From: Ophelia neglecta
Taxonomy: Eukaryota
Reading direction: 5' to 3'
DNA: 64,000 nucleotides
Assembly: GCA_965285935.1 (NCBI GenBank)
Contig: OZ260663.1
Location: 111,538,001 to 111,602,000 of the forward strand
The notes below the pieces were generated by a model, which searched no databases, was not told the origin of the DNA, and saw only the letters and a list, made by a program, of their open reading frames with translations. Both the position numbers and the translations under genes were made by a program. Positions 4,735 through 61,900 of the stretch are shown here, piece by piece (position 1 is the stretch's first letter; every line of letters starts with the position of its first letter).

Positions 4735-5173
4735 TGTTGTTGTTTGGGCTTTTTACGTGGCTTTCAACACTTATCGGTCATATCGCCACAGTGCCTACTT
4801 GTGACAGTGGGCTCAATGCCTTTTTTAGAGTGCTGCCTCACTGGAGTACCTGTCGTAGACACCAGACAGGGAACCCCACCCAGTCACATTATACTGACAC
4901 CGGGTCACTGGAGTACCTGCCGTAGACACCAGACAGGGAAACCCTCCCAGTCACATTATACTGACACCCGGTCACTGGAGTACCTGCCGGAAACACCAGA
5001 CAGGGAACCCCACCCAGTCACATTATAGTGACACCGGGTCACTGGAGTACCTGCCGTAGACACCAGACAGGGAACTTCACCCAGTCACATTATACTGACA
5101 CCGGGTCACTAGAGTACCTGCCGTAGACACCAGACAGGGAACCCCACCCAGTCACATTATACTGACACCGGGT
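4735..5173 (-). mobile_element. 5'-truncated SINE copy (same family as 5970-6298) with internal 5 x 67-bp tandem array
   Basis: 4735-4905 is the reverse complement of 6126-6297, including the tail GTTGTTGTTTGGG..TTTTACGTGGCTTTCAACACTTATCGGTCATATCGCCACAGTGCCTACTTGTGACAG. The tRNA head is missing. Confidence 0.9.
4839..5173. repeat. Tandem array, 67-bp unit x5, SINE-derived
   Basis: Unit CACTGGAGTACCTGCCGTAGACACCAGACAGGGAACCCCACCCAGTCACATTATACTGACACCGGGT starts at 4839, 4906, 4973, 5040 and 5107. Confidence 0.97.
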
Positions 5174-5969
5174 AGATATAGAATCTCAGTGCCACTCATT
5201 ACATCCTGGCATGTCTCGGCAGACGATGCAATATAAGTTTGCCCCCGGTTTCCACTGTCTTTATTGGACCTCCATTTCTATTTCCAGATAGGAATAGTAA
5301 TTGTTTGAACAACATGAACTATTCGAAAATAAATGCCTCAAATTGAGCGCAGCATGGAATCTCTGAACAACGCATATGTTCCAAAGATTGTTTGAGACAC
5401 AAAACCCATGCGATTGGCAGATGTGCCCCATGATATCAGTAAACGATATTTTAGATTTGTATCTTGGAAAAAACGGCCCTCAGATAATAATCATTTGCAA
5501 GAATATCCGTCTTACTTATTTCATGTTAATAAAAAAAAATCCTAGATTCGGTTTAAGAGAGTTACCAAGGGAACCATTGGCAGCATAAAGTCCATTGAAA
5601 CTTATTGGATAGTCTTATAAATATAGATGCACCAAAATTTGAAGGCTGGCGGAGAAACGTTTATGTTAATTTTGCTTATTTTTGATTAGCATGGAAAGGG
5701 GCCTACTAAACAGGTAGCTTGGCTCCACTTTACCAACGGGGTTTCATACAAGTTTAGCATATCTACAACTGCACTTGGTAATAACAAGGAATAATTCATG
5801 AATCCGACAATTGAATGCCGATGCGTGTCTATGATTTTTCGATACCCTCATCCATATCTATTTATCAGTCTATATAATAGATAGAAACGTTTGAAGGCCG
5901 AGTTAGTTTTTAACGCAAAAATATAAATGAATAATTCACAGTTGTTACATTACATTGTTACATTAAACG

Positions 5970-6298
5970 CCCACCGAAGCGTGGCCGAGTGGTTAGGGTG
6001 TCCGCCTCGCAAGTGGGAGATCGGGGTTCGCTTCTCGATCGCGGCATACCTAAGACGTAAAAATAGGTACAGATAGCTCCCCTGCCAGGCGCCCGGTATT
6101 TCGGGGGTAGTCTCAGGACAAGTCAACCCGGTGTCATTATAATGTGACGGGGAGGGGTTCCCTGTCTGGTGTCTACGGCAGTTACTCCAGTGAGACAGCA
6201 CTCTAAAGAGGGCATTGAGCCCACTGTCACAAGTAGGCACTGTGGCGATATGACCGATAAGTGTTGAAAGCCACGTAAAACCCCAAACAACAACAACA
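5970..6298 (+). mobile_element. Full-length tRNA-derived SINE, MetaSINE-like central domain, (AAC)n tail
   Basis: Pol III A box TGGCCGAGTGG at 5982-5992. B-box-like GGTTCGCTTCT at 6025-6035 inside a GATCG..CGATC stem. The head is followed by CATACCTAAGACGTAAAAATAGGTAC...CCTGCCAGGCGCCCGGTATT, resembling the Meta domain. The 3' end is GTTGAAAGCCACGTAAAACCCCAAACAACAACAAC. Possible decayed TSD ACATTAAACG (5960-5969) / ACAGTACACG (6296-6305). Confidence 0.88.
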
Positions 6299-6644: not shown

Positions 6645-7179
6645 TTACGTCTGTAGAGCCAATCCCACACACAAGCGTAGGCCTTTTGACCGACTAATTA
6701 CTCAAACACGATCGTAAGTCTGTAGACCGAACCCGTATTCCTCCGAGAGACCGTAGGTCTGAAGACCAACACCATAAACTCGCCTGTAGGCCTCCGAGAG
6801 ACCGTAGGTCTGAAGACCAACACCTTACTCTCGCCCGACCGGAAGTCTAAAGACCGAAACCTTATCAATACCATACCGTAGGCCTGTAGACCGACACAAT
6901 ATCCCTACTCGACCCTAGGTACACCGCGGTTTCTCCCCAAATGCCTGTAAGTCTGCAGAACGACACCTTACTCTCGCACGACCGACTGATACCTTTTCAG
7001 TACCAGACCGTAGGCCTGTAGACCGACACAATGTCCCCACACGACCCTAGGTAGACCTACAGCTTCTCCCTAAATGCCTGTAAGTCTGTAGAACGACACC
7101 TTATCTCCTGGCGACCTTTTGTCTGTTGACCGACAGCTTAACCCAACAAGATCGTGTGTCTGTTGAACGATCCCTTGTG
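6645..7179. repeat. Degenerate ~37-bp minisatellite (left part, interrupted by the LINE)
   Basis: Recurring core CGTAGG(T/C)CTGTAGACCGACACC. Higher-order duplication 6876-6975 vs 7008-7105. The array resumes at 11871-12010. Confidence 0.8.
7140..7179. repeat. Left target-site duplication (40 bp) of the LINE
   Basis: AACCCAACAAGATCGTGTGTCTGTTGAACGATCCCTTGTG, identical to 11868-11907. Confidence 0.9.
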
Positions 7180-7196
7180 AACACAGAAAGTCAAAA

Positions 7197-8171
7197 GTGG
7201 ATCTTTCGGATGGTGAAGGGGATGTGGATGACATGGCATTTACAACGGATGATGAGGATTTTGATACGAGAGACTTATGCAAACAGCTAATGTCCCAAAA
7301 TAAACAACTGCATATGCATATCATAAATTTAATAAAGGAAAATAACTCCCTTAGAGAAGAGAACAGAAAATGTCATACAAGCTTTGATAAGTTAGAAATT
7401 GAAATTAAACAGTTGAGAACAGCAAGAGACAAGGACAATGATGAACGAGACAATGAGCAAAAAACGATTGGAGAGATGAAAAAGGATTTCGATAGAATGA
7501 ATGATTCAATCAATGCCATTCTATACATGATGTATGCTCCCAAGGGACAAAAACCAGTCGGGGTACAAAACGAGTTGGGACAGTGGGAAAAACCAACCTT
7601 AGCGGAGGTCGTTAAAATAGACGAACCTCTGCAAACACAATTAGCACCAAGCCAGAGGAGCATAAAAGATCCGAGTGCCAGCCAAACTGTTCAAAACACC
7701 AGAAACCCAGAAACAGTGTTCCAGTTGATGTCAACCTTGAACAACAATGGTCAAAATGTCAGTGATCCCGAGTACAATTCAACCTCCAGGGACACCAGCG
7801 TGGACCGGGAGGATGATGCACAAAACGTAGGCACTGAAATCGTACAAACTGACCAAAACAGACCAACGTCTGGTGCTGACCATGACAAGGACACCCTTGA
7901 AGGCTTCCAGGTGGTTATGAGAAGGCCACGCTCTCGTGCCTTTTATATAGGGAGTGTCCGAATCAAAGGGTCCAATGAGCATACAGCAGAACTGTTGAAT
8001 AAATATTTAGTAGATAACCAAGTGAAGGTCACCCATTGCATAATTCTAAAAAGGTCTGGTTCCTACCTGTCGTTTAAACTGAATGTAGATAGTGAAGATG
8101 CTGAGAAAGTATCTGATACATACTTCTGGCCCACCGGAGTCCACGTTCGTCCCTGGGACTACAGACCCTAA
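7197..8171 (+). CDS. LINE ORF1 protein (coiled coil plus C-terminal RRM-like domain); true start uncertain
   Basis: 324-aa ORF with a heptad-rich N-terminal half (LIKENNSLREEN...LEIEIKQLR) and C-terminal SFKLNV...FWPTGVHVRPW, typical of LINE ORF1. The frame is open back to the element boundary; the first ATG is at 7233. Confidence 0.85.
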   Translation: MDLSDGEGDVDDMAFTTDDEDFDTRDLCKQLMSQNKQLHMHIINLIKENNSLREENRKCHTSFDKLEIEIKQLRTARDKDNDERDNEQKTIGEMKKDFDRMNDSINAILYMMYAPKGQKPVGVQNELGQWEKPTLAEVVKIDEPLQTQLAPSQRSIKDPSASQTVQNTRNPETVFQLMSTLNNNGQNVSDPEYNSTSRDTSVDREDDAQNVGTEIVQTDQNRPTSGADHDKDTLEGFQVVMRRPRSRAFYIGSVRIKGSNEHTAELLNKYLVDNQVKVTHCIILKRSGSYLSFKLNVDSEDAEKVSDTYFWPTGVHVRPWDYRP

Positions 8172-8180
8172 TACTAGATT

Positions 8181-8942
8181 ATGGAGCCACGTTCGTTACC
8201 AGTGCAAAACTCTCTTAAACTCAGCGCATTTAATTGTCAAGGTCTGTTAAGGACAATAAATTATGTTGAAAACTTTTTAAATGAATATGTTCCGGATATC
8301 CTATTTTTGTCAGAGCACTGGTTACGCGGCAGCCTGCTGCCCGCATTAGGACAAGTTCATGGTAGATACTGTGCAAGGGGTAAGTCAGATCCAAGGAGTG
8401 ATATCCTTGATCCCAGCCACCCTGGAAAAAGGTATATGGGTGGGACAGCATTTCTCTGGAAAACTGAATTGGACAAATATATAAAGCATGTTCCTCATGA
8501 AAACCCTGGAATACAGATTCTTAAAGTGTCAGCACCCATGGAAATTGTCGTGATAGGTGTTTATATGCCATCGGTGGATAAGGGAGTTTCTGCGTTTGAA
8601 GAAGTGCTGAGAGACGTAGAAGCGGCCTACGATACATTTAGCCATGCTACAGAAACTGTTATACTTGGCGACCTCAATTGCACATTATTTGGCCCGAGAC
8701 TCCCAAAACCTCCAATGGAATATTATGCGACCTCTAAAAGAAGAACTCTGTTAACATCTTCCTTGAGTGTTCGTGGATTGACCTCGTGGATGGTGGAGCT
8801 GTGCTGTGATGGCCCAGCGTTCACTCGAGAGCCGTATCAGTATGGCCCACAGACCCTTATAGACCACATTATAGCTAGAAGAAGATTAAAAGATCTTATT
8901 TGCTATTGTAAAGTTGTGGACGACCACCACCTGAACACCTGA
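8181..8942 (+). CDS. LINE ORF2 N-terminal part: APE-type endonuclease (ends at a frameshift)
   Basis: Motifs FNCQGL, DILFLSEHWL, GGTAFLWK, IGVYMPS, ILGDLN and LIDHII. The final catalytic (S)DHLPV motif continues in the +1 frame from 8941. Confidence 0.92.
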   Translation: MEPRSLPVQNSLKLSAFNCQGLLRTINYVENFLNEYVPDILFLSEHWLRGSLLPALGQVHGRYCARGKSDPRSDILDPSHPGKRYMGGTAFLWKTELDKYIKHVPHENPGIQILKVSAPMEIVVIGVYMPSVDKGVSAFEEVLRDVEAAYDTFSHATETVILGDLNCTLFGPRLPKPPMEYYATSKRRTLLTSSLSVRGLTSWMVELCCDGPAFTREPYQYGPQTLIDHIIARRRLKDLICYCKVVDDHHLNT

Positions 8943-8946
8943 TCAT

Positions 8947-11718
8947 TTGCCGGTTATGATCGCCATTAAACGTAAGCCATGCACTGATAAATTCCAACAA
9001 TCTTTCCAACGGCAAACGTACAACTGGCGTAAAGGTATGGAAACGGGGAAAGAAAAGGACTACCGGCACCAGGCTTCCCAAAAACTGTCCAACCTCACTG
9101 CATTGAAATGGAACTCTAAAGATGAACTAGAGCAGAGTTATTCCCATATAGTAGATTGTCTAAGTGAAGCTGCAAGAAACAATATTCCAATAAAACAGTA
9201 CCGACCCTACATTAAACCCTATTGGAAAAGAGCTGCTCTTCCCGACTTACACGGCGATATGAAGCGGCTAAGAATTATTTGGATAGAGGAAGGGCAACCA
9301 CGTGGTGTACAGCATGCCTCCTTCAGGAACTATAAAGAGGCAAAACGAAAGTTTCGCAATGTTCAACGTACCCTCATAAACGAAATGGTATCGGAATACT
9401 ACCTTGAAGTAGACAAAGCCGCTGAGTGCGACCAAGAACAATTATGGAGATTAATAAATGCTCGAAAATCAAAGAAGCCGCCTGCCCTCTCTGAACTTAA
9501 TATAGGAGAGGAAACAATAAGGGATCCTTACAAAATATTAGACAAGTGGGCAGAACATTTTGCTTTGTTGTTCGCACCCCTTCAGGACCCTAGTTTTGAT
9601 GAGGAACATGCTTGCGCCATCGAACGTGCGGTGGGGGCCTTGAGGGTGAGGGCATCTGATGAGAATGACCCTGTTATGTCATGCCCGTTAACACGCTCAG
9701 AAATACAATCAGCTATTTCTCACTCAAAGAACGGTAAAGCCGGTGGTCATGACAAGCTGGTGTATGAACATCTGAAGCATGGCGGTCCTATTCTCGTTGA
9801 TGTGTTGATTAAATTGTTTAGTAGTATGTATGAACTGAGCTATGTTCCTACAGGCATGAAGCGAAGCGTAATTATACCAATATATAAGGGTGCGCGGAAA
9901 TTCGAAGACGATCGTGAAAATTTCCGAGGGATCTCACTATTGCCCGTCCTGTACAAGATTTGGGAACGGGTTGTTCTTAATAGATGGCTTTCGTGGTTGG
10001 AGGCTAACTCTTGTGAAGAGACCAGTAGCTTCCCTGTCGAGTCACAGAATGGTTTTCGAAGGGGGAGAAGTTCTATGATGACTTCGTTTGCATTGCAAGA
10101 GGTAATACATTGGGCCTCTGAGAGAGGTAGTAAAGTGTATGTTTGCCTATTAGATTCGTCCACAGCGTTTGACTGTGTTTGGAAAAATGGACTCTTTGTT
10201 AAGTTACACAAATATGGAATAAAGGGGAAATTATGGACGCTTCTCTTCGAAGCTTACACAGATATGTGTGCTATCGTGGGACATGACGGGAGATACTCTA
10301 GAGAATTTCCGGTATTGCAGTCGGTTCGACAAGGTAGTGTACTGGGCCCACATGCTTATATTGCCTTCATTAACGATCTCCCACTACAATTAGAAGAGTC
10401 TGGAATGGGGGTGCATATTGGTGATTTATATTGTGGTGCCTTGCTACAGGCGGACGATGTCGCCCTCCTGGCTCTAACCCCGAAATCGCTTCAGGTAATG
10501 ATGAACACTTGCCTTGCCTACAGTAGAACCTGGCGCTTTAGATTTAACCGTGAAAAAACCCAAATTCTCGTCTTCGGGCCATCAGCCAAGGTACAGTCAG
10601 GCCTGGAACTAACTTGGGACCTTGGTGGTGCTAAAATCTCACCGGTCGACCAGGCTTCCCACGTTGGCATAAATCTCTCCCCACGTGGAACCGGTGACAG
10701 AGCTCGAACAGTGGCCATCTCTCTGCGATCTCAGTTGGCAGGCCTGGTAGGCATTGGGATCCATCCTGCTGGGCTGACTCCACTCACATCTGTAAAACTG
10801 TACAGAAATGTTGTTCTTCCACGTGCGTTATATGGAACAGAGCTATGGACAAATGTCACATTGGCGGAAACTACGATATTGGAAGTTGCACATCATTTCT
10901 GTATTAAAACAATGCAGAATCTGCCTCTCCGATGTCGGTCAGCCAAGGCCATCTCTCTATTGGGATTAGGCAACATCATTGTGGAGATAAATCGTCGACG
11001 TCTTCAATTGTTTGGGACGCTCGCGGCCTTACCCGAGACAGCATTTCCTGTAAGACTGCTGCGCCTACGATTCGTGGACCTCTTGAATGGTAATGTCAAA
11101 CATCCAAGGGGGTTCGCTGTAGAGGTCATGTCACTCACCAGAATGTTGGGACTGGACGCCCAGGTCATGGGCCTCGTTGCTCAGGGGAGGTGGTGTGGAA
11201 AATATGCGTGGCGCAGGATGTCCAGAGAGGCTTTTAATTCATACAACCAGAGGTGTTTTGGTGCGGTCTTTGAATCAGACCCTGACTTTGCTGCATTTCG
11301 ACGTTTCCACCCAGAGGCCACGATTCCAAGCATTATATGGACCGTGTGCCGTCGCACCAGCGGGCTCAGGATACAGTTGGCATTTCTAGTTAAACTTTCC
11401 ACTAGAAACACTGGGGTCTGTCGCGAATGCATACTCTGCAGCGAGCAGTATCAAGATTGTGTGGAACATTTCGTTTGTTACTGCTCACGCTTCTCCGATT
11501 TGCGTCACGCATACTGGGATGCCCTTATTGACAACCTGGATGTACATGATAGCGTAAAGCTGTTTTGGATGTCAAGTGAAAATTTTGTGGACGCCTTCTT
11601 CAGCGGAAAACATTTAAATTGTAATCCATCTATTTTCTTGACAATCAATGGTCGATATTGGTACACCCTCAGACATTATGTAACAAATGACATACTTTAT
11701 AACTATAGTATTGAGTAG
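8947..11718 (+). CDS. LINE ORF2 C-terminal part: reverse transcriptase plus C-terminal zinc knuckle
   Basis: 923-aa frame with KAGGHD, IIPIYKG, NFRGISLL, QNGFRRGRS, LDSSTAFDCV, VRQGSVLGP, FINDL, LQADD, KTQIL, HVGI, LYGTELW and CILC-x9-H-x4-C. It is the continuation of the 8181 ORF across a frameshift at ~8940. Confidence 0.95.
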   Translation: MPVMIAIKRKPCTDKFQQSFQRQTYNWRKGMETGKEKDYRHQASQKLSNLTALKWNSKDELEQSYSHIVDCLSEAARNNIPIKQYRPYIKPYWKRAALPDLHGDMKRLRIIWIEEGQPRGVQHASFRNYKEAKRKFRNVQRTLINEMVSEYYLEVDKAAECDQEQLWRLINARKSKKPPALSELNIGEETIRDPYKILDKWAEHFALLFAPLQDPSFDEEHACAIERAVGALRVRASDENDPVMSCPLTRSEIQSAISHSKNGKAGGHDKLVYEHLKHGGPILVDVLIKLFSSMYELSYVPTGMKRSVIIPIYKGARKFEDDRENFRGISLLPVLYKIWERVVLNRWLSWLEANSCEETSSFPVESQNGFRRGRSSMMTSFALQEVIHWASERGSKVYVCLLDSSTAFDCVWKNGLFVKLHKYGIKGKLWTLLFEAYTDMCAIVGHDGRYSREFPVLQSVRQGSVLGPHAYIAFINDLPLQLEESGMGVHIGDLYCGALLQADDVALLALTPKSLQVMMNTCLAYSRTWRFRFNREKTQILVFGPSAKVQSGLELTWDLGGAKISPVDQASHVGINLSPRGTGDRARTVAISLRSQLAGLVGIGIHPAGLTPLTSVKLYRNVVLPRALYGTELWTNVTLAETTILEVAHHFCIKTMQNLPLRCRSAKAISLLGLGNIIVEINRRRLQLFGTLAALPETAFPVRLLRLRFVDLLNGNVKHPRGFAVEVMSLTRMLGLDAQVMGLVAQGRWCGKYAWRRMSREAFNSYNQRCFGAVFESDPDFAAFRRFHPEATIPSIIWTVCRRTSGLRIQLAFLVKLSTRNTGVCRECILCSEQYQDCVEHFVCYCSRFSDLRHAYWDALIDNLDVHDSVKLFWMSSENFVDAFFSGKHLNCNPSIFLTINGRYWYTLRHYVTNDILYNYSIE

Positions 11719-21700: not shown

Positions 21701-23155
21701 GTGGTTGTGTTTAGTCCTCCGATTACGTGGACTGAAGAGCAATCAAGCTGGGTCTCATCAATCATCACATCAATCATTGCAATCATTACATTCACAACGG
21801 ATGCTTCAACCCGCTCTCAACCCGACAGTGTGTTTGATTAGCAGTAATCAAACATCGATCGGTTAGTTTTAACAATTCATTTTATGGTTTGTTTATACAA
21901 TTGCCATTTATCTCCAAATAAACGCCTCAAAACGTCAGCCTAGATAATATCGTCTCTACATTGTAACTGCTGACTTTAATAATCTTATAAACATAGTATA
22001 GACTCCATTTGAGAAGCAAAATTTATCTTTTATAAGCAGGTGAGGGGTCAATAGTGTACATTTCTCTATTTAGATTGATCGCTTGGCATCTTGGCTTTTA
22101 GACCCCGTTTACCTGACTTATATATGTACGGTCTCTGCAGCTTTATAGCGAGCGCAAGCGAGCGGCCCCGAAGGGGCCGCTCGCGGAGCGAGCTCTATAG
22201 ATAACGTGTATGCGTAGGGAGAAAGTGCATAAGAAATCAAAACAAACTATAGAGATACCAGTACTCGAACCAACTTGGTTTCCTTGGTCAATTTCCGGTA
22301 AAGTGGTAGCCACAGTAGTAGTATTTGAACGTAGTCGTGTTTGTAGTAGTACTTTTTGAAGCGGAATTTGTCAACTTTCAGGTAGTTGCGCAAATTACAA
22401 GGTTAAAAAATCGAAATAAGTCTAAGTGTACACTTAATTCCTCGTAAATAATACTTAATTACATAACCTTATTTATTCGGGGAAAAAAACACCACATCTA
22501 AGATTGTAGGAGCAAATTTTTAAATACGAATTTAAATTTGCAACTCCCGTTGTAGTCTCGTCTGCAATCCCGCAGATCTGATGCCAGTTCCGTATGGATG
22601 AGTGCAAAAAAAGTCAATCACTAGTAGTTGTTTCGATACCGGTTATCTTGTAATCAGGGTATAGTATTGATCTCCATCAAGGTCAAATAAATTGAAAAAC
22701 CCTAAAGCTCGTGAGCTGTGAGCGGCCTGTTCACGGGAAAACAGGTGCAGGCCACAACGAGGCTACAATTGCGCGTCGTCTGCTTTGTTTACATCTGCTA
22801 GTCGGCTGAGCTGAACCCCGGACTGCTTCTGCTGCTCAGGTACAGTAGTCTTGCAATTAATCAATGAACGTAACTCGATCTAGAAATAACAAATTGGTGA
22901 AACACCAGAATATTTCAAACCTAATATCTCGTTCCAATTAAATCCATGAAAATATTGGTACATTTATTGATATCTTCGTAGTGGTCAAGACCAGTCAATG
23001 TCAAGGCCACAACTGTCAAAACGCAAACTGACAGGCCTATCTGTTTTGGTTTGCTTTCACTGCGCGTTAAGACTAGCAACGTTTTTCAGCCTAACATGTG
23101 CTACAAGTTCTCACACTCAGCAGAAGTTTTTCTTTAATTACTTTCTTTCTTGCAG

Positions 23156-23206
23156 CGTTATTCTTGAAGACCTGTTGTGTTTGAACTTTCTATACGTGTC
23201 TCTCAG
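23156..23206 (+). other. Candidate 51-nt micro-exon inside the Helentron-like element
   Basis: Acceptor TTACTTTCTTTCTTGCAG and donor CAG/GTAAGT. Confidence 0.4.
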
Positions 23207-25141
23207 GTAAGTTATCAATGGCAGGCTTCACAGCAGGTCCTATTTTTTATCCTTCCATGGGGAGAGTGAGTACTTACATTACTTAGGAGTACAATTGGAC
23301 AACAAGTGAAGTGCTGAAGGGTATCTTTTTCAGGTTTCTCTCCTTTTAAGGAAATATGTTTCCTAAACCTTGCTATTTTAAAGGATATGCTAAAAGGGGG
23401 ATTTCTCCTGGCAGGGTATTATGTCTATATTCTTAGGTTTGGGCGACCCACTTAGTGTCGAGAATAAGCATGAGCATTTTTCGGCGGACAGGTGCCTTTT
23501 TATCTGCACACCATTACCATAATTTCAACTAAATACCCCCTCCGGGCTTTTGCCACATGATTAGATGTGAAATGAATTATTATCATGAACATCATTTTCC
23601 AGTTCACTTGTCAGTAGGACCAGCAGCAGAATTTCCATTTTTCTTCTTATATATCTTTTTTTTTGAAATATAAAGGGTTTGAAGGCTGAAGCATACAATA
23701 ATAACAATATAAATCCTTCACAAAGTTTACAGATGAAGATTGGCATTTTTCTAAAACATGGCCTAATGAAAAGTGCACTGGAAAATAAAATATATTAAGT
23801 GATATTTTATTCCTTCTTGTATCACTTCAATTTTCATTGTATAGTTAGTGGCTGACATTTTATCTGCAAAATACTTATGAGGAGGATGTATTAATAATCC
23901 AAGTATATGCTATCCATTCCATACTAGTTTTTCTTGATTTCTGTTTTGTATTAATTCTGCATATCTAGTTGACTTTTCTGCAGGGCTTTCTCATGCCTCT
24001 GAAAGCTATCTCTTGTCTTTCAATGTCATTTTCTTTTATAGCACAAACGTGTATAATGAGTCAAATATATGGCACAGGTCAGTTATTATGAATATTGTAC
24101 TATGAATTGCTTTCTGAAGTCAAAGTGACCCTCTAAGTTCCTACTCACACAGTGTTAATGCCTATTTCATCAAAATTATCTTTGTGGCTAGTTTTAACAT
24201 CTTTTAGGGTGGGTGTCATGAGCGTCGCTAACCTAAAGACAATGTTTTAATTGCCCAAAGATAGGATAATTACTCAACCGGTTGGTCAAATTCATGATTA
24301 TGATTCCTCAATGAAATAAATATCTGATAATATTCGTTTTTGCCTCTCTATAAAATTCAATACATGTATAATCAATTTGTCCTGATAACCTAGTACTATA
24401 TATTAATATATTCAATTTTGAATCCAATGTCTGGGACTGTAACCTTTTTATGTGTTTGAAGTCTAAAATAAGTTTATCACACCTACCAATGGATATTTCA
24501 TGGTGAATATGCACATTGGGGTATATATATATATATATATAGAGTGAGATTGTATAAATACATGTATTTATGTGTTCCATGTTCATGATGTATTATGTGA
24601 ATATATTGTCTATTTTAAATGTCATTATGTATCTGTTTTTTCTATGTTGATGTTCAAGCTCCTAGAGAAAATGACTCCCATACTAAATGGAAAAAATATA
24701 ATAAACTTATCCAAGTGCTTCTATATATACACTAGAACCTCATTAGACAATTCATTGGTCCAGATTACTGATAATATTAACTTCGCATTACCCATTGAGG
24801 TTTGGAATATGACCAAATTAAAATATTGAACTGACAAGTAGCATAGGTGAGAGAATAAAGCATTTCATTTATTCAGTTGAAATGTTTTTTACTTGCTCAT
24901 CAACTTCAAGACCACACATTAAACTATCCTTCTGTTTGAAGGTACAATTGAATGTAGGCAAATGTTCACCCAAGCATATAGATTGATTCTTAGAACAGAT
25001 GAGATTATGGTGATTACCCGGTAAATGTAGAAACAGGAGAGAACAGCATAATATATATGTATTATTATGAAGCAGAATGTTTGAACCTAAAATTCATCAA
25101 ATGTCATTGGTAACTACAATGGTCAATGTTTATATTTTCAG

Positions 25142-25180
25142 AGCATGAAGCATGAAAGATGTATATTAGGCATACATCAG
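25142..25180 (+). other. Candidate 39-nt micro-exon inside the Helentron-like element
   Basis: Acceptor TTTATATTTTCAG and donor CAG/GTAACT. Confidence 0.35.
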
Positions 25181-25344
25181 GTAACTTATAACTTGAAAAC
25201 AACCGTACATGCCCTCTTCTAACTCTTGTGTCAAACAATTGTTATTTTTCACCCAATGACTATTTCAATCATCAGTTTTTCTTTCTCACAAAATAAATGT
25301 GTCAGTTGCCTAATATTTTGATATGTGTGGGTAGTGGATGTAGT

Positions 25345-25722
25345 CCCGGGGGGGGGGGGGGTACTCCCATTATCCGGCATACTGGGTATGTGCGGCCGAG
25401 AAGGGTCGTTTTTCCTCAAAACTTCCCTAAACCAAGGGTACCTTTTTGTTGATTTCTTCCCTAATAAAGGGTATGGTTTCTAGAAAAAAATTCATCCTGT
25501 CGGGCATGATTCTGAATTGCCTAGGGCAGTGAATAACCTGTATTCCATTCCACGAGGTTACATGTATGTCATAACAAAGTGCCAAGTTTGAAGTCAAAAT
25601 GTCCCTAAATCAAGGGTAGGTTTGAAGTCATAATGTCCCTAATTCAAGGGTAGGGTTTGCCAGGTACCAGCCGCACACCCCCACCCAAAAATAATGGGAG
25701 TACCCCCCCCCCCCCCCCCGGG
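25345..25722. mobile_element. 378-bp MITE with poly-G TIRs and 8-bp TSD
   Basis: TIR CCC(G)nTACTCCCATTAT / ATAATGGGAGTA(C)nGGG. TSD GATGTAGT at 25337-25344 and 25723-25730. Internal CCCTAA..AAGGGTA subrepeats. Confidence 0.9.
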
Positions 25723-26414
25723 GATGTAGTGTATATGCTCCCAAACCAAATTTTATGTACCCTTTGGCTCTTTGTCATCCTCTGTGGCATGCTAGCTAAC
25801 TTGTAACATAGCCACAAGGTGAGTGGTTGTTGTGTGCATCATAGTTTTTAATCTATCATTCTCTCATGGGCTGAACAATGCCCAATATAATACTTCCCTG
25901 CTGAAATAAAATGAATGAACATACTTCCTCTTAAAACTAACTGGGTAATTCAGGTATGTCAATCCTGACTGCTATAGTAGTATAGGGAGTACTTTCAAGG
26001 TTGGACCATGATCTACCCATGTATATAGTTTTGTGAGTACTAACATGGGGTAGGCCATCTCAAGACATCTTGTAAGTCCTTTTTCTTCTTAATTTCATAT
26101 ACAGGCTGTAAAATTATAGGCCTCACAAAATGAAAAGCTTGTGATGAATAAGTTGAGTGTCTGAACTATAAATATATTAGGATTTTTTGTACAGTATAAC
26201 TTGCAAGTCCCAGGTGCCAATGGAATTCACAAATTGATCTGGGATGATCCCTGGTAGTCCATGGAGGCCTGGCACAAATAATCAAGGCAATAAAACTATC
26301 CAAGATGTTATTAAAGTCCATTCTTAAACCATGATACACACAATATTTCTGTACATGTCCAAATGAGTCATTAGCCAGGACACCTGAGTACAGCAGGACC
26401 TGGGCCTGTAAATA

Positions 26415-26500
26415 CACAGGGGCTTGTGTCAAAGCCTATGTATGTATAAATACTAACCACTACGTTATATAGTAAAGGTATGTTGACACAAGCCCCTGTG
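26415..26500. repeat. 86-bp foldback with perfect 18-bp inverted repeats (mini-MITE-like)
   Basis: CACAGGGGCTTGTGTCAA (26415-26432) / TTGACACAAGCCCCTGTG (26483-26500). Confidence 0.8.
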
Positions 26501-27209
26501 AGTAAATATAGTATTTATATCTATATATATACAGGAGTGAACCTATTACCAGCAAGTCAAGCTCCTGCTTGCTGGTCATTGATTCACTGGTTTTGGCTAG
26601 AAAATACAATCTGTAGCAATCCCTATACTACTACATTTGAAAAAGGTACAATGTTATCTGGTTATGGGTGCATGGGCTGTAGGTAGATCAGTTACTGGTG
26701 CCAGTGATGAGGCAATGAAAACTGGAGCCGGTGGTTCATCACACTTACTATCATTAAATTGATACTGTATACTAAGTTTAATTTATTACCATCTCATAAT
26801 TTGTATGTAACGGGTATTATATATCACATAGATCTCGCTTATGGCATGTTGACACCCATCGTGTGTTCCCCTTGAATACATTGGGAATATCCTATCATAT
26901 ATAAGGGGTATTTTCTCTTGCGCTCGCAAACTAGGCATCGCCTATATATATTAGCTTTAGTATATGCAGCTAACTTGGATCTGTCTGTTTTCCACGAATG
27001 TCAGTTCCATTGTACCTTAGTTCCGAGCCAGCATACAGCTGATTTGTTTTTTTGCAAAATGTTGACAACGTTCATACACTCACTGTGAATCTTAAGTGCG
27101 ACATTTCCTTGAAACATATTGGATCTCATTACTACAGTATAATTGAAAGAACCCCCCCCCCCCTCCCCCACGGAGATGGTAAAACCAATAAAATCTACCA
27201 GATAGATAT

Positions 27210-36489: not shown

Positions 36490-37100
36490 TATTAACAAAT
36501 GTCCACAACCCTACCGATATTGTCATACATCCATTGATCAAATCCTACAGATATTGCCCTACGCTCATAGATCTACAGATATTGCCATACGCTCATAGAT
36601 CTACAGATATTGCCATACGCTCATAGACCTACAGATATTGCCATACGCTCATAGACGTACAGATATTGCCATAAGCTAATTGACCATAGACGATATATTC
36701 ATTGCTCCCTACAACTCTGGATATTGCCATTAGTTCATAGGCCTCCCCACATCGGCATTAATCAACTTCCTGACATTGCTATTAGTTTATATACCAATTA
36801 GCCCAAAAACCACAAAACCTTCCAACATTGCCATTATTCCATACATCTACAACCTTGCAATAATTTCAAATACCATAGACCTTTTGGTATTGCCATTGGT
36901 TCTTTGATCTTTTGATAATTTATAAGTCCATAGGCCATAGTCCTTTCCAGTTTTCCATTAGTCTATTGACCTCTTGACATTGCTATTAGTCCGAGGAGCT
37001 CTCGACTTTGCCAATAGACCTTCCGATATGTCCCTGAGACCAATGACCTCTTGACATAGCTATTTAGCTCACTATCCTTCTGATATCGTCATTTAGTCCA
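36490..37100. repeat. 28-bp minisatellite, near-perfect core 36545-36672 with degenerate flanks
   Basis: CTACAGATATTGCCATACGCTCATAGAT at 36545, 36573, 36601, 36629 and 36657. Diverged GA(C/T)ATTGC(C/T)ATTAGT units continue to ~37100. Confidence 0.9.
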
Positions 37101-46649: not shown

Positions 46650-47080
46650 AGAAATAACATAACCACTGATACAGTGGAAGATAAACAATTAAAAAAACAG
46701 GTCATCACATATAATATATTAAATCAAGCCGATGTATTTTGAAGAGACGATACCACATTGATCATCTATGCTTTAAAGCGACACCGTCCACAGCTGTCCC
46801 ACCCTGTTACTAAACCTTGTGTGAGACAAATAAAGCTAGTTCAGAGTTAAGCAGTTAAATACTAGAAATAAAGTAAACACTGATACAGTGGGAGAAAAAC
46901 ATTTTTAAAAAACAGGCCATCACATATAATAACTTAAATCAAGCCGATGTATTTTGAAGAGACACACGGCACATTGGTCATCTATGCTTTAAAGCGACAC
47001 CGTGCACGGCCGTCCCACCTTGTTTATGATTCCTAAACCTTGCGTGAGACAAATGAATCTAGTTCAGAGTTCAGCGGTTT
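46650..47080. repeat. Tandem duplication, period ~214 bp
   Basis: CACTGATACAGTGG...TTAAATCAAGCCGATGTATTTTGAAGAGAC...CATCTATGCTTTAAAGCGACACCGT...CTAGTTCAGAGTT begins at 46664 and 46878. Confidence 0.92.
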
Positions 47081-56559: not shown

Positions 56560-57600
56560 CATGCGACAGCATCGTATGATCTTAAGCATGCACCTTAAGC
56601 TTTGGTTTTCATGGGCATGTAGACAGTTAAAGCTTGGTTTCCGGAGGCATGCAGACAGCTGCCATTTTGATGGTAGGTAGCATGTATGCATCTTAAAGTC
56701 TGGGTCCGGTGCCACAGAGTCAAAGATTTGATGTTCGGTGGCATACAGAAAGCTAAAGGTTTTAGGGATTTGTGGCATGCAGAAAATGTTTAATGTTCAG
56801 TAGCATGTAGACAGCTAAAGATTCGTGTCAGGAGGCATGCAGTCAGGAAACTGTTTGGTGTTCTGTGGCACGTAGGCAGTAAAAGGTTTGGTGTTCGATG
56901 GCATGCAGACAGCTTCAAGCTTGGTGTTGTGCGTCATAATGATATTAAAGGTTTATAGTCCGGGGCGTGTACATAGCTAAAGGGATTGGTGTCCGGTTAA
57001 AGGTTTGGTGTCCAATGGCATGCCGACAGCAGAAGGTTTGGTGTCCGATGGCATGCAGAAAGGTCAATGTTTTATGTAGGGCGGTGATATACAGACAGTG
57101 GAATTTTTCATGTGTAATGGCATGCAGACAGTGGTAGTTTGCTGTTCTATCCCATACATACAGCAAAAGGTTTGGTGTCCGGAGATATGCAGACAGTTAC
57201 AATATTTTCGATAGCTAATATCTAAAGGTTTGATGTCTGGTGGCACACAGAAGGAAAATGTTTGATGTTCTGTGCCATGTAGACAATTATAGATTTGCTG
57301 TTCGGTAGTATGCTGACAGATAAATGTTTGGTATTCGGTGGCTTGCAGACAGCTTAAGGTTTGTTGTTCGGTGGCAAGCAGACAACGAAAGGTTTGGTGT
57401 TAGGTGGCAAGCAGACAGCTAAAGGTTTGGTGTTAGGTGGCATACAGACAGTTAAAGATAAAGTGTTTTCAGTGGCATGCTGGCAGTGAAAGGTGTACTG
57501 TTCGGTGGCATGTACACAGACAGAGGTTTGGTTTTGGCTGTCAATAAGACAGATAAGGGTTTGGTGTTTGTTCGGTGAAATGCTCACAGCTATTGTATTG
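56560..57600. repeat. 33-bp minisatellite, ~30 degenerate units
   Basis: Consensus GGCATGCAGACAGCTAAAGGTTTGGTGTTCGGT; the period is exact at 57340, 57373, 57406 and 57439. Confidence 0.92.
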
Positions 57601-58899
57601 GTGTACCATAATGGGGTGTGTGTGGGGGGGGGGGGTTGTGGGGGGGGGGGGGAGTTGTAGGCGGCCATACGACTGCCTCCTATATCAGTCACTGGGGTAA
57701 ATTATCTATGAATGTCTGAATTTGGCAAAACAATCTCTTTTAATAACTGTAACAACAACACAATAGTTTAACGGGTACATTGTGAATGCCAGCATTGTTA
57801 TTCCGCATGGATTAATTGACTAAACATTGATGACCGATTTAAGTTTCACAAAGAAAATGGATACAGACCAAAAAGTCACATGTACAGAATGGAAAAAGCA
57901 ATCTGACGGAACCGGACGTGTTTATAATAAAACTATCATTTGTATGAAACATTCATGACGAGCACTTAGATGAACTCAATGGAAATGTAACCTTCCACAA
58001 CAGTAGATAATCTAAAACTGCTTCAGGGACAACTTTAAGTCATGATACAACCCCTTAATTCCCTTTAAAAAGTATGACTAGAACAATTGTGCACGCTGGG
58101 TATCGACGCTCCATTCAGTCACCAATTGGTTGTTGTAGCTTGAATTATTGTGAGTAGGCCTCCAATATATATTGTTTCTTAACATATTTTTGAAAGTTTC
58201 ATATCTGGACGAAATCATCTGTAGGTCCGCCAGACAGTGTACACAATTAATTATAATGAGCATTGACCGTTTCGCTGCTGAGAAGCCTTAACCATAGTAC
58301 AATAATCCCACTGGTCACTCATCGTAGGTCTCTTCCAAGTCTTATTTCCAGCTGACTCATGGCAGGATTAAAGTCGATATCCCAGGAAGTAAGGTGTTTC
58401 CATTTGCTTTCCAGAGGGTTATAGACGGGAGAGAAAGACGCAAGGAATGGCTGATTAAGTTTGATTGTTTCAGGAAAACCGTGTTTGCCGTTTAGCCTGA
58501 ATGTAGCCCAGTCGCGGTTTACCCAACAGTCAACTATTTCAAAGGATGAACGCTTAGGTATTCTATTACATGGCGGGAAACACGGCGAAGGCATAACTCT
58601 GATTGCACGGTCCGTCGTGACTTATAGCGACATTCCGTTAGTGTGAGGCGTTGATAAAGCACTATGATTGTGGTGTGCGTTGTTATTAACAGCCTCATTC
58701 GTTAGTGTTGGTCCGAGTCCTTGATTTATGATAAATGCGTGATGCCTTACAGTGACATTTCGCTAGCCTGGGTCCAAGATATTTGATAAATGCGTGGTGA
58801 CTAACTTTTTATTACATTGGGATCTACTCTTAATCTAGAAATATTAATGAAACGTTTGATAAATTCGGCATTTTCCGACGTCCCTGCTTAGCCCTATAA

Positions 58900-59146
58900 G
58901 ATATGTGGGCCTGCAGCTGATAGCTCCCAACTGGGGATTGATCTTTTCGGGCCTGCAGCTGTAGGTTATTAACGGAGAATTGATGTTTGTGGGCGTGCAG
59001 CATTTAGTTCGTAACTGGGGATTGATGTTTTGTGACTTTTCAGCTGATAGATCTAGTGGGAGAATGATGTCTGCGGGCCTGCAACTGATGGTTTTTAAGT
59101 TGGGATTGATATCTGTGCATCTACAGCTGATGGTTCCTAACTAGGA
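58900..59146. repeat. 42-bp minisatellite x6
   Basis: GGGCCTGCAGCTGATAGCTCCCAACTGGGGATTGAT-like units at 58907, 58949, 58991, ~59033, 59075 and ~59117. Confidence 0.85.
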
Positions 59147-60399: not shown

Positions 60400-61900
60400 G
60401 GATGCAGTACCTAAGGCTGACAAAGATTTATCTCTTGGAAAAAGGCCAGCCTTGCTACTAGACAGCAATGCATCAGCAAAAATACAACATGCTGATATCT
60501 TAGTTACTCTTTGGGATATAATTACAGCTGCTCGTGACTTTGTTGTTGTAATGCATAGTGCCGGACAGAACACGAAACTAAGTAAGACAGGGGTCAAAGG
60601 TGGAATAAACATATACATTTTAGAATTGGATCTAGTCTAAACTTTTTATTTTTATTCTAAATATTTCTAAACGCTCAACGAAAAGACTATGTTATATTTA
60701 AAAGAAACTATTTAGGGACAGCAATTACTATCATCGCCGAAAAAGATCAAATGCAGAAACTCTTGATGGTCACCAATGAGTCAATTGCATTATAGCAGTT
60801 CAGGGCCTCTTAGTAGTGTATCACTTGCTGAAAGGCACGATTATTTCAATGACTTGCTGAATTTGCAGTCTAAATTGTTCCATTTTTAGCTGGGTGAGTA
60901 ATTAACTTGCCAAATGGTAAGGCGGCTGAAGTTGTTCCTTTATCATACTAGATGTAAAATACAAAGATGACAAAAATAGTATTGATATTTTAGGTCCACA
61001 TATTGTCTTTTGTTTAATTGTGCTATGAATTCCAGAGTTTAACCTGATCAGAGGTGTACTGCAATAATTAGTCATTAACACAAAGCAGTTCAAAATCTGA
61101 CTTAAACAACTGCAGAGGAATTTCTCAACTGTGTACTATTGCTAGATTTTAATAAATAGAATATCTTCTGAAAATAATGATCTGTTAAACGAGTCTTTCG
61201 AATGCCCGCTCAGGGGTATATCTTAGTGAATGTTTTCCGAATATATTCATGGTTATCTCTGCTGTTGATATATCCATGCCGAATAACACTGCTGGTCGAC
61301 TGCATAAAGAGTTGGAAACAAGGCATACATTTTGTTAAAAAATATGCTTTCAAAGTGAATACATTCAAGACTAAATTAATTTCATTAATGAGAGGAAGTG
61401 GCCTTGAATCAAATGAAAGATGGTGTATTAATGGAGCAGAGCTTGTATGCGCGCCATATTATACATACCTAGGAGTGATGTTTTAATGGACCAGAACTTG
61501 AATGTTAGACATATCTGAGTGTAATATTTTAATGGAGCAGAGCTTGTATGCGCGCCATGCTACACATATCTTGATGTGATATTTTAATGGAGCAGAGCTT
61601 GTATGCGCGCCATGCTACACATATCTTGATGTGATATTTTAATGGAGCAGAGCTTGTATGCGCGCCATGCTACACATACCTGGGTGTGATGTTTTATAGC
61701 CACAAAGACATTGGTCAATCAAGCAGGGAAACCTACCAGAGGGATTAGTAAACTACTAACCCCCTATCTGTTAACCAGACGTCTGTTTATCTTGACAATA
61801 TAATCATGCTATCCTGCTATATGGATCAGAAGACAGGGGTTATTATATGTTTTTTTTATTGATATTCTTTATTCCTTCAAATTGGAGAGCATGAAACAAG
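60400..61900 (+). pseudogene. Decayed LINE ORF2 (EN and RT relics, RTEX-like)
   Basis: ADILVTLW and KGGINIYI (EN, 60490-60620); KVNTFKTKLI and YTYLGVMF (RT, 61350-61485); ILLYGSEDRG (cf. LLYGSEVWG, ~61810). Confidence 0.65.
61430..61695. repeat. 55-bp tandem array x5 derived from LINE RT sequence
   Basis: AATGGAGCAGAGCTTGTATGCGCGCCATGCTACACATATCTTGATGTGATATTTT at 61430, 61485 (shortened), 61531, 61586 and 61641. Confidence 0.92.

Follow-up and report, generated by a model that had tools for sequence, protein, structure and literature searches.

The window analysed here is a stretch of 64,000 nucleotides from the genome of Ophelia neglecta (assembly GCA_965285935.1, contig OZ260663.1, positions 111,538,001 to 111,602,000 of the forward strand). 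Its positions 22146–26951 are occupied by a polymorphic transposon insertion, a non-autonomous deletion derivative of the Helitron2/HLE2 type. The element begins with 5'-TA, ends with TATAT-3', and carries inverted repeats (Table 1). An earlier note, made from the sequence alone, had described a cargo-bearing, non-coding Helentron/Helitron2-like element between positions 22142 and 26977. Its assignment to the non-autonomous Helitron2/HLE2 type was supported by paired ends at many loci, sharp boundaries, an empty allele, and a partner encoding a Rep–helicase protein (RepHel); the boundaries and the cargo had to be revised.

Boundaries and architecture of the insertion

The empty allele, which the earlier note had advised looking for, joins position 22145 to 26952 and skips exactly 4,806 bases, with the four letters TAGC fitting either side of the joint. 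It was found in Logan contigs from three runs (X1–X3) of one sample, where the depth at the joint was approximately that of the flanks; polymorphism was observed at the window locus only. Homology to other copies starts near 22142–22146 and stops at 26951–26953, never at 26977. The left end, previously placed at 22142, is corrected to 22146, TTTA being part of the target. Sliding of the boundaries is possible by +2 (TA) across the family and by +4 (TAGC) locally.

Since the empty allele makes this joint and homology stops at 26951–26953, the CTTG formerly taken as the terminus belongs to the host flank. The same is true for the second of the two right-end hairpins reported there (~26951–26973, z = -0.62), while the first stands by its conservation across families. 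The 3' inverted repeat, thought to lie ~50 nt inside the end, is 24 nt from it. The worry that the right flank, GAT, does not fit a TT target arose because the right boundary was misplaced; the true target is centred on TA and not TT.

Both ends of the element are multicopy. A search of the genome (762 Mb) returned 128 and 138 first-look candidates for the two ends, of which 40 each were scored. The inverted repeat GCGAGCGCAAG and its exact complement, both recognised earlier, are the sole two matches in the window, and none is expected from 100 shuffles. This 5' repeat shares one base only with the main 5' stem. The 5' hairpin described in the earlier note was also borne out by folding; four of its 12 pairs are changed on both sides among six aligned ends, which, as related sequences, are suggestive only. 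The 3' hairpin draws its support from a stem conserved with different loops in two related families. As had been stated, no long open reading frame (ORF) is present: none within the element exceeds 94 aa, and none of its 48 frames of at least 40 aa matched Pfam.

Elements of 510–758 bp with the same ends exist in this genome, which would suit the idea that short independent HINE-like repeats bracket unrelated DNA by chance. This explanation is extremely improbable, given that the whole interior accompanies the ends at other loci, that an internal junction is common to nine loci, and that the empty allele drops all 4,806 bp at once.

Table 1. Features assigned to the insertion and its target site (window coordinates; TSD, target site duplication; TIR, terminal inverted repeat; MITE, miniature inverted-repeat transposable element)
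Feature	Position	Strand	Remark
Left target half TTA	22143..22145	+	With TA at 26952-26953 forms empty site TTA^TA (^, insertion point)
Whole insertion	22146..26951	+	4,806 bp, 5'-T convention; empty-allele joint and homology limits
5' asymmetric terminal inverted repeat GCGAGCGCAAG	22148..22158	+	2 nt from 5' end
5' hairpin, 12-bp stem, GAA loop	22158..22184	+	Folding z = -4.85 versus shuffles
Parent 5' non-coding region upstream of RepHel	22185..23813	+	~90% identical to C8 copy
Deletion junction, CC microhomology	23812..23813	+	~8.2 kb of parent gone
Parent 3' non-coding region downstream of SGNH-fold gene	23814..26916	+	Interrupted by two MITEs
Nested TIR element, 377 bp, poly-G/poly-C ends, 9-bp TSD GGATGTAGT	25345..25721	.	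Joint 25335->25722
Nested MITE, 86 bp, 18-bp TIRs, 8-bp TSD with one mismatch	26415..26500	.	Joint 26407->26502
3' asymmetric inverted repeat CTTGCGCTCGC	26917..26927	+	24 nt from 3' end
3' hairpin TAGGC-ATC-GCCTA	26932..26944	+	z = -1.14, no more stable than chance alone
3' terminal TATATAT	26945..26951	+	Then target TA (26952-26953)

The autonomous parent and the origin of the interior

A RepHel-bearing partner with near-identical ends, which the earlier note had named as support to look for, is located at G000:C8:4.31-4.33 Mb of the same genome. This autonomous copy has a size of 14,878 bp, contains open frames of 2,088 and 296 aa, and is identical to the window element in its first 70 nt. 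The long frame includes the domains DUF6570, Helitron_like_N, and PIF1 as well as a stretch resembling OTU, which at E 2.9e-4 does not reach the Pfam cut-off; the HUH, two-Tyr, and helicase motifs are in place. The long frame is split in two copies on C12, and a copy on C5 is decayed. The RepHel of a sister family is also open (2,110 aa) and is 77% identical over 1,496 columns, the conserved part. An apurinic/apyrimidinic (AP) endonuclease was found neither in the C8 parent nor in the sister RepHel but was present in three other RepHels of this genome in the same scan. With such a partner, the window element falls outside the Helentrons as strictly defined, one of the two labels in the earlier note. 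An intact relative likely supplies the RepHel that mobilises the window copy in trans, and the C8 copy or the sister RepHel may be the helper.

The 296-aa product (ORF2) had no Pfam match. Together with the five homologues found, it shows the four SGNH blocks DS, PG, GxCN, and DGxHP. An alignment-based model of ORF2 reached a pLDDT of 80 (single-sequence folding was poor, with a pLDDT of 42), and its top Foldseek matches were mostly GDSL/SGNH proteins (best E 2.7e-7). By these motifs and the model, ORF2 is a predicted SGNH-fold protein. A search of PDB sequences with the ORF2 profile gave histone H2B tails only among the 60 matches listed, an artefact of a basic stretch. The order of RepHel followed by an SGNH gene was also found in the metagenome record MOXH01000113.1; the metagenome scan revealed four loci, and element ends were not recognised in the two longest.

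The interior of the window element is non-coding DNA of the parent plus two nested MITEs. Nearly the whole core (4,334 of 4,342 bases) can be aligned to the autonomous C8 copy, with the order preserved. Core identity is 96.0–98.3% to seven deletion copies and 91.4–91.9% to four RepHel-bearing copies. The deletion at 23812/23813 removed the RepHel gene, the SGNH-fold gene, and, just upstream of the RepHel start, the last of the predicted splice acceptors. In a survey of this junction, with 21/21 candidates scored, it was spanned at nine loci, the window included; the two halves that flank it sit 8.1–8.2 kb apart at four loci, and the right half occurs alone at four further loci. The 377-bp nested element is missing from other copies that span its site; we take it to be Mutator-like by the length of its TSD, and the 86-bp MITE is, by the same token, presumably hAT-like.

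The earlier note had proposed that the element carries cargo. An interior taken over from host DNA would agree with its length (~4.2 kb, non-coding) and its splice-like motifs. Besides full copies of the family, three genome searches with interior pieces also revealed a few short, weak matches (76–85%, 50–170 bp), and the long 3' region of the parent might itself be an ancient capture. These searches, in which only the best candidates were scored, gave no single-copy donor, and none of the frames has a Pfam match. The only additions unique to the window copy are the two TIR elements, each with its own TSD. Recent capture from the host is largely refuted by these data and by the colinear alignment, and the cargo-carrying alternative as a whole is improbable. 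Given the junction common to nine loci, the alignment of the core to the C8 copy, the donorless searches, and the MITE-only additions, the window copy and its closest relatives trace back to one deletion event that was amplified later, and not to cargo capture.

Untranslated exons are predicted in the 5' region from consensus matches only, namely an acceptor at 23154-23155 and donors at 22840 and 23207. The motifs are kept in the C8 copy too. In deleted copies, such predicted exons could splice outward.

Several further observations concern the family copies. The 3' region of the window element contains an imperfect 21-bp inverted repeat whose arms are 11 nt apart (26536-26588). Eight clustered loci at G000:C5:8.59-9.49 Mb (L043, L045, L046, L049, L051-L053, and L058) join sequence similar to 22847-23152 to the 3' end with 77–82% identity; they also have upstream flanks in common and represent local duplicates of one old derivative. 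A coding copy (L039, C12:64.49 Mb) and a deletion copy (L041, C9:10.73 Mb) have ~280 bp in common beyond the 3' end, for which read-through at the 3' end or insertion at the same repeat site are possible explanations.

Target site, mechanism, and surroundings in the window

Comparison of insertion sites gives T-N-W^TA, and not TT, as the target consensus of the family. At the left ends of fetched loci, TNAT precedes AGCG in 19 of 24 cases and T occupies that first position in 23 of 24. The background frequency of TNAT is 0.094, which gives p ~2e-16 for 19/23, one of the 24 left ends being a head-to-tail junction. The right ends show (TA)nTTA in 22 of 35 cases, followed by T in 14, C in 5, G in 3, and A in none of them; the other 13 were not counted. 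Two head-to-tail junctions (L016 and L072) carry a single TA.

Related families were examined for the same features. The sister family, which starts with TATGCGAG, gave 42 pattern matches; 30 of these were fetched and represented 27 distinct flanks. All 27 have T at position -3, and position -1 is A in 21, T in 5, and G in 1. This family alters both inverted repeats in step (GCGAGCGAAG / CTTCGCTCGC) and keeps both hairpins. Two further pairs of empty and filled sites were identified in paralogous repeats, at TAT^TA and TGA^TA. A third site, TAA^TA, was checked on the right side only, and the left flank of the own-family copy is unlike the empty site. A third family ends in a GGC/GCC hairpin and ATAT-TA; its 5' ends were not found at the loci in question (C8:0.96 Mb and C12:75.5 Mb). 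The ends of the endonuclease-bearing Helentrons of this genome were not located either, hence there is no in-genome control for TT.

Two side observations relate to these families. The repeat site TAA^TA (L205-L210), possibly a hot spot, borders on 3' ends from two different families of the clade and is empty in four paralogues. One autonomous element of the sister family (L152, C9:10411952 and 10412044) bears a second 5' terminus at a distance of 92 bp from the first, a feature also described for some FoHeli elements of Fusarium oxysporum (PMC5148889).

We consider the window element to be an internal-deletion copy of an endonuclease-less Helitron2/HLE2 that has kept both ends and the parent's non-coding DNA and for whose movement an intact relative likely provides RepHel in trans; we assign a probability of about 0.88 to this reading. 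By analogy with Helraiser (PMC4778049), the RepHel nick would fall 5' of the terminal T, at TNA^TAGCG, and the 5' T would be held as a phosphotyrosine. Strand displacement would terminate at the 3' repeat and hairpin and yield a circle, a step also modelled on Helraiser. The circle would then be transferred into a T-N-W^TA site with no duplication. Every left junction would thereby recreate the target, so that new copies could stack head-to-tail at the 5' end of an older element. The inferred cut, mostly A^T, would resemble that of canonical Helitrons and of the endonuclease-less proto-Helentron (PMC4067079).

The earlier statement that there is no TSD is probably right, but TA at both junctions also fits a 2-bp duplication. 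A mechanism that duplicates TA, either cut-and-paste or a staggered cut, would make GCGAG...TATAT the true ends and TA the TSD. It would account for the TA that nearly every copy has at either junction, and the observed difference between filled and empty sites is the one expected from such a duplication. Ends of this kind, however, have no terminal inverted repeats, and the parent encodes only an HUH/Pif1 RepHel and the SGNH-fold protein. TA targets of Tc1/mariner elements are palindromic. The target described here is asymmetric, with T at -3 and a base other than A after TA in 22/22 counted cases, and Helitron2 elements start with T (PMC3627910). We regard a TA-duplicating mechanism as unlikely, slightly more so than the capture of cargo.

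Some points weigh against the rolling-circle deletion copy as we describe it. Five of the 24 left ends lack TNAT, and one right end outside the 22 counted has A as the next base. Some loci share flanks by duplication, so the counts are not fully independent. The position of the nick within TA is not fixed by the sequence; a TA duplication yields the same sequences. The C8 parent is ~8% diverged in its interior and may not be the actual helper. Finally, the empty allele rests on contigs of one sample, which may not be the assembled individual.

No host gene was recognised around the insertion, with 0/121 frames of at least 68 aa outside the element and a nearby long interspersed nuclear element (LINE) matching Pfam; short exons escape such a search. 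Rfam gave no match in the window or in four stretches of contig C19, which is described below. The LINE-like element (7167-11715, + strand) has a frame of 334 aa followed by an endonuclease (254 aa) and a reverse transcriptase (927 aa) in separate frames. A tandem array of five 67-bp units and an inverted pair of ~170 bp with 94% identity (4735-5176 and 6123-6295) resemble a TIR element with internal repeats. Degenerate tandem arrays are located at 56597-57658 (33 bp), 58904-59142 (42 bp), 61428-61696 (55 bp), 46650-47079 (215 bp), and 36544-36685 (28 bp).

Phylogenetic place and relation to known Helitrons

The published diagnosis of Rep motif 2 is ExQxRG(S/L)(P/L)HxH, with a Helentron form (V/I)ExQxRGSPHxH preceded by F/Y-x-x-R (PMC4067079). 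The motif 2 core of the parent is EFAKSRGMIHWH, within the stretch YWYRYEFAKSRGMIHWH. The upstream triplet F/Y-x-x-R is kept, Q and S are missing, and the spacer is longer by one residue. Among 63 RepHel homologues, 59 share 49–69% identity over the Rep region, and those with names come from Mytilus, Mercenaria, Pinctada, and Oculina. An AP endonuclease is listed in 0/63 of them, many of which are partial. Among 147 further representatives, 108 fit the motif pattern, with the longer spacer in 105 of these 108.

In FastTree reconstructions, these proteins form one clade (20 rows, support 100), which is placed beside a RepHel from Fusarium oxysporum and apart from the endonuclease-bearing group. 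These trees are unrooted, were made with FastTree only, include one partial long-branch HLE1 row, and contain no Repbase or HELIANO references; the clade may correspond to subgroup a of HELIANO, to its subgroup c, or to an unclassified cluster. By BLASTP, the parent scores 297 bits to Fusarium oxysporum P0169 (25% over 1,397 columns) vs 134 bits to one of the endonuclease-bearing Helentrons in this genome. Of the named canonical relatives found, P0169 is the nearest; it keeps EWQGRGSSH and falls outside the clade. The clade with the EFAKSRGMIHWH motif appears, from the sequences compared, to be deep and to have bivalve and coral members.

We tentatively propose, at somewhat under even odds, that the parent represents an undescribed deep rolling-circle lineage. 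It would be characterised by the motif EF-xxx-RG-(Q/M/A)I-HxH, the lack of the endonuclease, the presence in animal members of OTU plus an SGNH hydrolase, a T-N-W^TA target, and, in this animal, continuing movement. Our literature search, with Repbase and most subscription papers outside it, revealed no paper with a EFAKSRGMIHWH-type motif or with a T-N-W^TA target in animals; the supplementary alignments of PMC4067079 and PMC5148889 may already show the motif or settle the FoHeli target. The motif string had no match in the text of the HELIANO supplement (PMC11417382), which may hold no sequences.

Other RepHels were observed in this genome. One has an N-terminal domain of the herpes-tegument type, another shows the canonical motif and has no endonuclease, and a canonical Helitron is present as well (L117, L119, and L121). 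Fifteen RepHel genes, 14 of them open at 2,214-2,238 aa, occur with 27–67 kb spacing on the 529.5-kb contig G000:C19 (L116 and L122-L124), the first nine on the minus strand and the last six on the plus strand. The single RepHel scanned there has OTU and AP endonuclease, and identity between two units is 100% across 9,804 bp. The contig may represent a large array of Helentrons, tandem or palindromic, or else an extrachromosomal element.

Helitron2 elements have asymmetric inverted repeats of 8–15 bp, with the 5' copy 0–2 bp and the 3' copy 20–30 bp from the end (Bao and Jurka, 2013, PMC3627910). The 11-bp repeats of the window element sit at 2 and 24 nt, the 3' one upstream of the hairpin, which agrees with this description. 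Hairpins at both ends are a further likeness: the 5' one is strongly supported by folding, and the 3' one is weak alone but has its stem kept in three families. A 5' T, OTU upstream of RepHel, and non-autonomous derivatives with common ends also match Helitron2/HLE2 (PMC3627910; PMC11417382), as do Rep followed by a Pif1 helicase between the same ends and DUF6570, an HLE2 marker (Li et al., 2024, PMC11417382). The differences are the T-N-W^TA target as compared to the usual T^T or TTTT^T/C (PMC3627910; PMC11417382), the EFAKSRGMIHWH motif of the parent, its separate downstream SGNH-fold ORF, and the one-base overlap of repeat and stem.

FoHeli1 and FoHeli2 from Fusarium oxysporum are an HLE2 exception with a TNAT target, the nearest one described, given as TNAT^A in the text and TNAT^T in a figure legend (Chellapan et al., 2016, PMC5148889). 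This was the only report of a Helitron with a TNAT insertion target that our literature search gave. Similar to the elements studied here, they are endonuclease-less and have a 5' hairpin with a GAA loop, an AT-rich 3' end, and multiple 5' termini. In contrast, FoHelis have a size of 5–6 kb, and the accessible text of PMC5148889 mentions no OTU or SGNH gene for them. P0169 was compared as a RepHel of the same species and may or may not be FoHeli1/2 itself.

Subterminal inverted repeats, a 3' stem-loop, deletion derivatives, and F/Y-x-x-R before motif 2 are shared with Helentrons, HINEs such as the oyster Cg_HINE, and DINE-1 (PMC4067079; PMC7492417). Unlike that of Helentrons (Thomas et al., 2014, PMC4067079), the RepHel of the parent carries no C-terminal AP endonuclease fusion, and it lacks the Ser of the G-S-P-H position (PMC4067079). 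A TA-centred target and a fixed end also differ from the TT target and variable T tails of Helentrons and HINEs (PMC4067079; PMC7492417), and the window element, its nested MITE apart, has no central tandem repeats. Canonical Helitrons (HLE1) have 5'-TC and CTRR-3' ends, one 3' hairpin, and no inverted repeats. Those ends are absent here; the window element has inverted repeats, and CTTG lies in its flank.

An SGNH-type gene that travels beside a Helitron transposase is known from texim, SGNH hydrolase genes of fish. These are multi-exon and located upstream, and the linkage was reported only for fish (Tomaszkiewicz et al., 2014, PMC4021074). The parent, from an invertebrate, has its SGNH-fold ORF in one open frame that follows RepHel downstream; this ORF and texim were compared by layout alone.

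The window copy itself is an ordinary deletion derivative; the variant lineage behind it is set apart by its Rep motif and its target. The Helentron endonuclease has been proposed to nick T-runs, causing variable T tails (Thomas et al., 2014, PMC4067079). An endonuclease-less animal element with a fixed end and a longer target, like fungal FoHeli1/2, fits the choice of target by the Rep domain itself. Annotation rules that assume TT targets or a GSPH/GLPH motif would mis-bound or mislabel this lineage. Our literature search found no transposition or cleavage assay for HLE2. The open 2,088-aa RepHel with both ends, the compensated sister family, and the presence/absence polymorphism make a ready test system. 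If the lineage is undescribed and still moving, it would supply an intact HLE2-type transposase from nature, with which the mechanism of this half of the Helitron superfamily could be tested for the first time.

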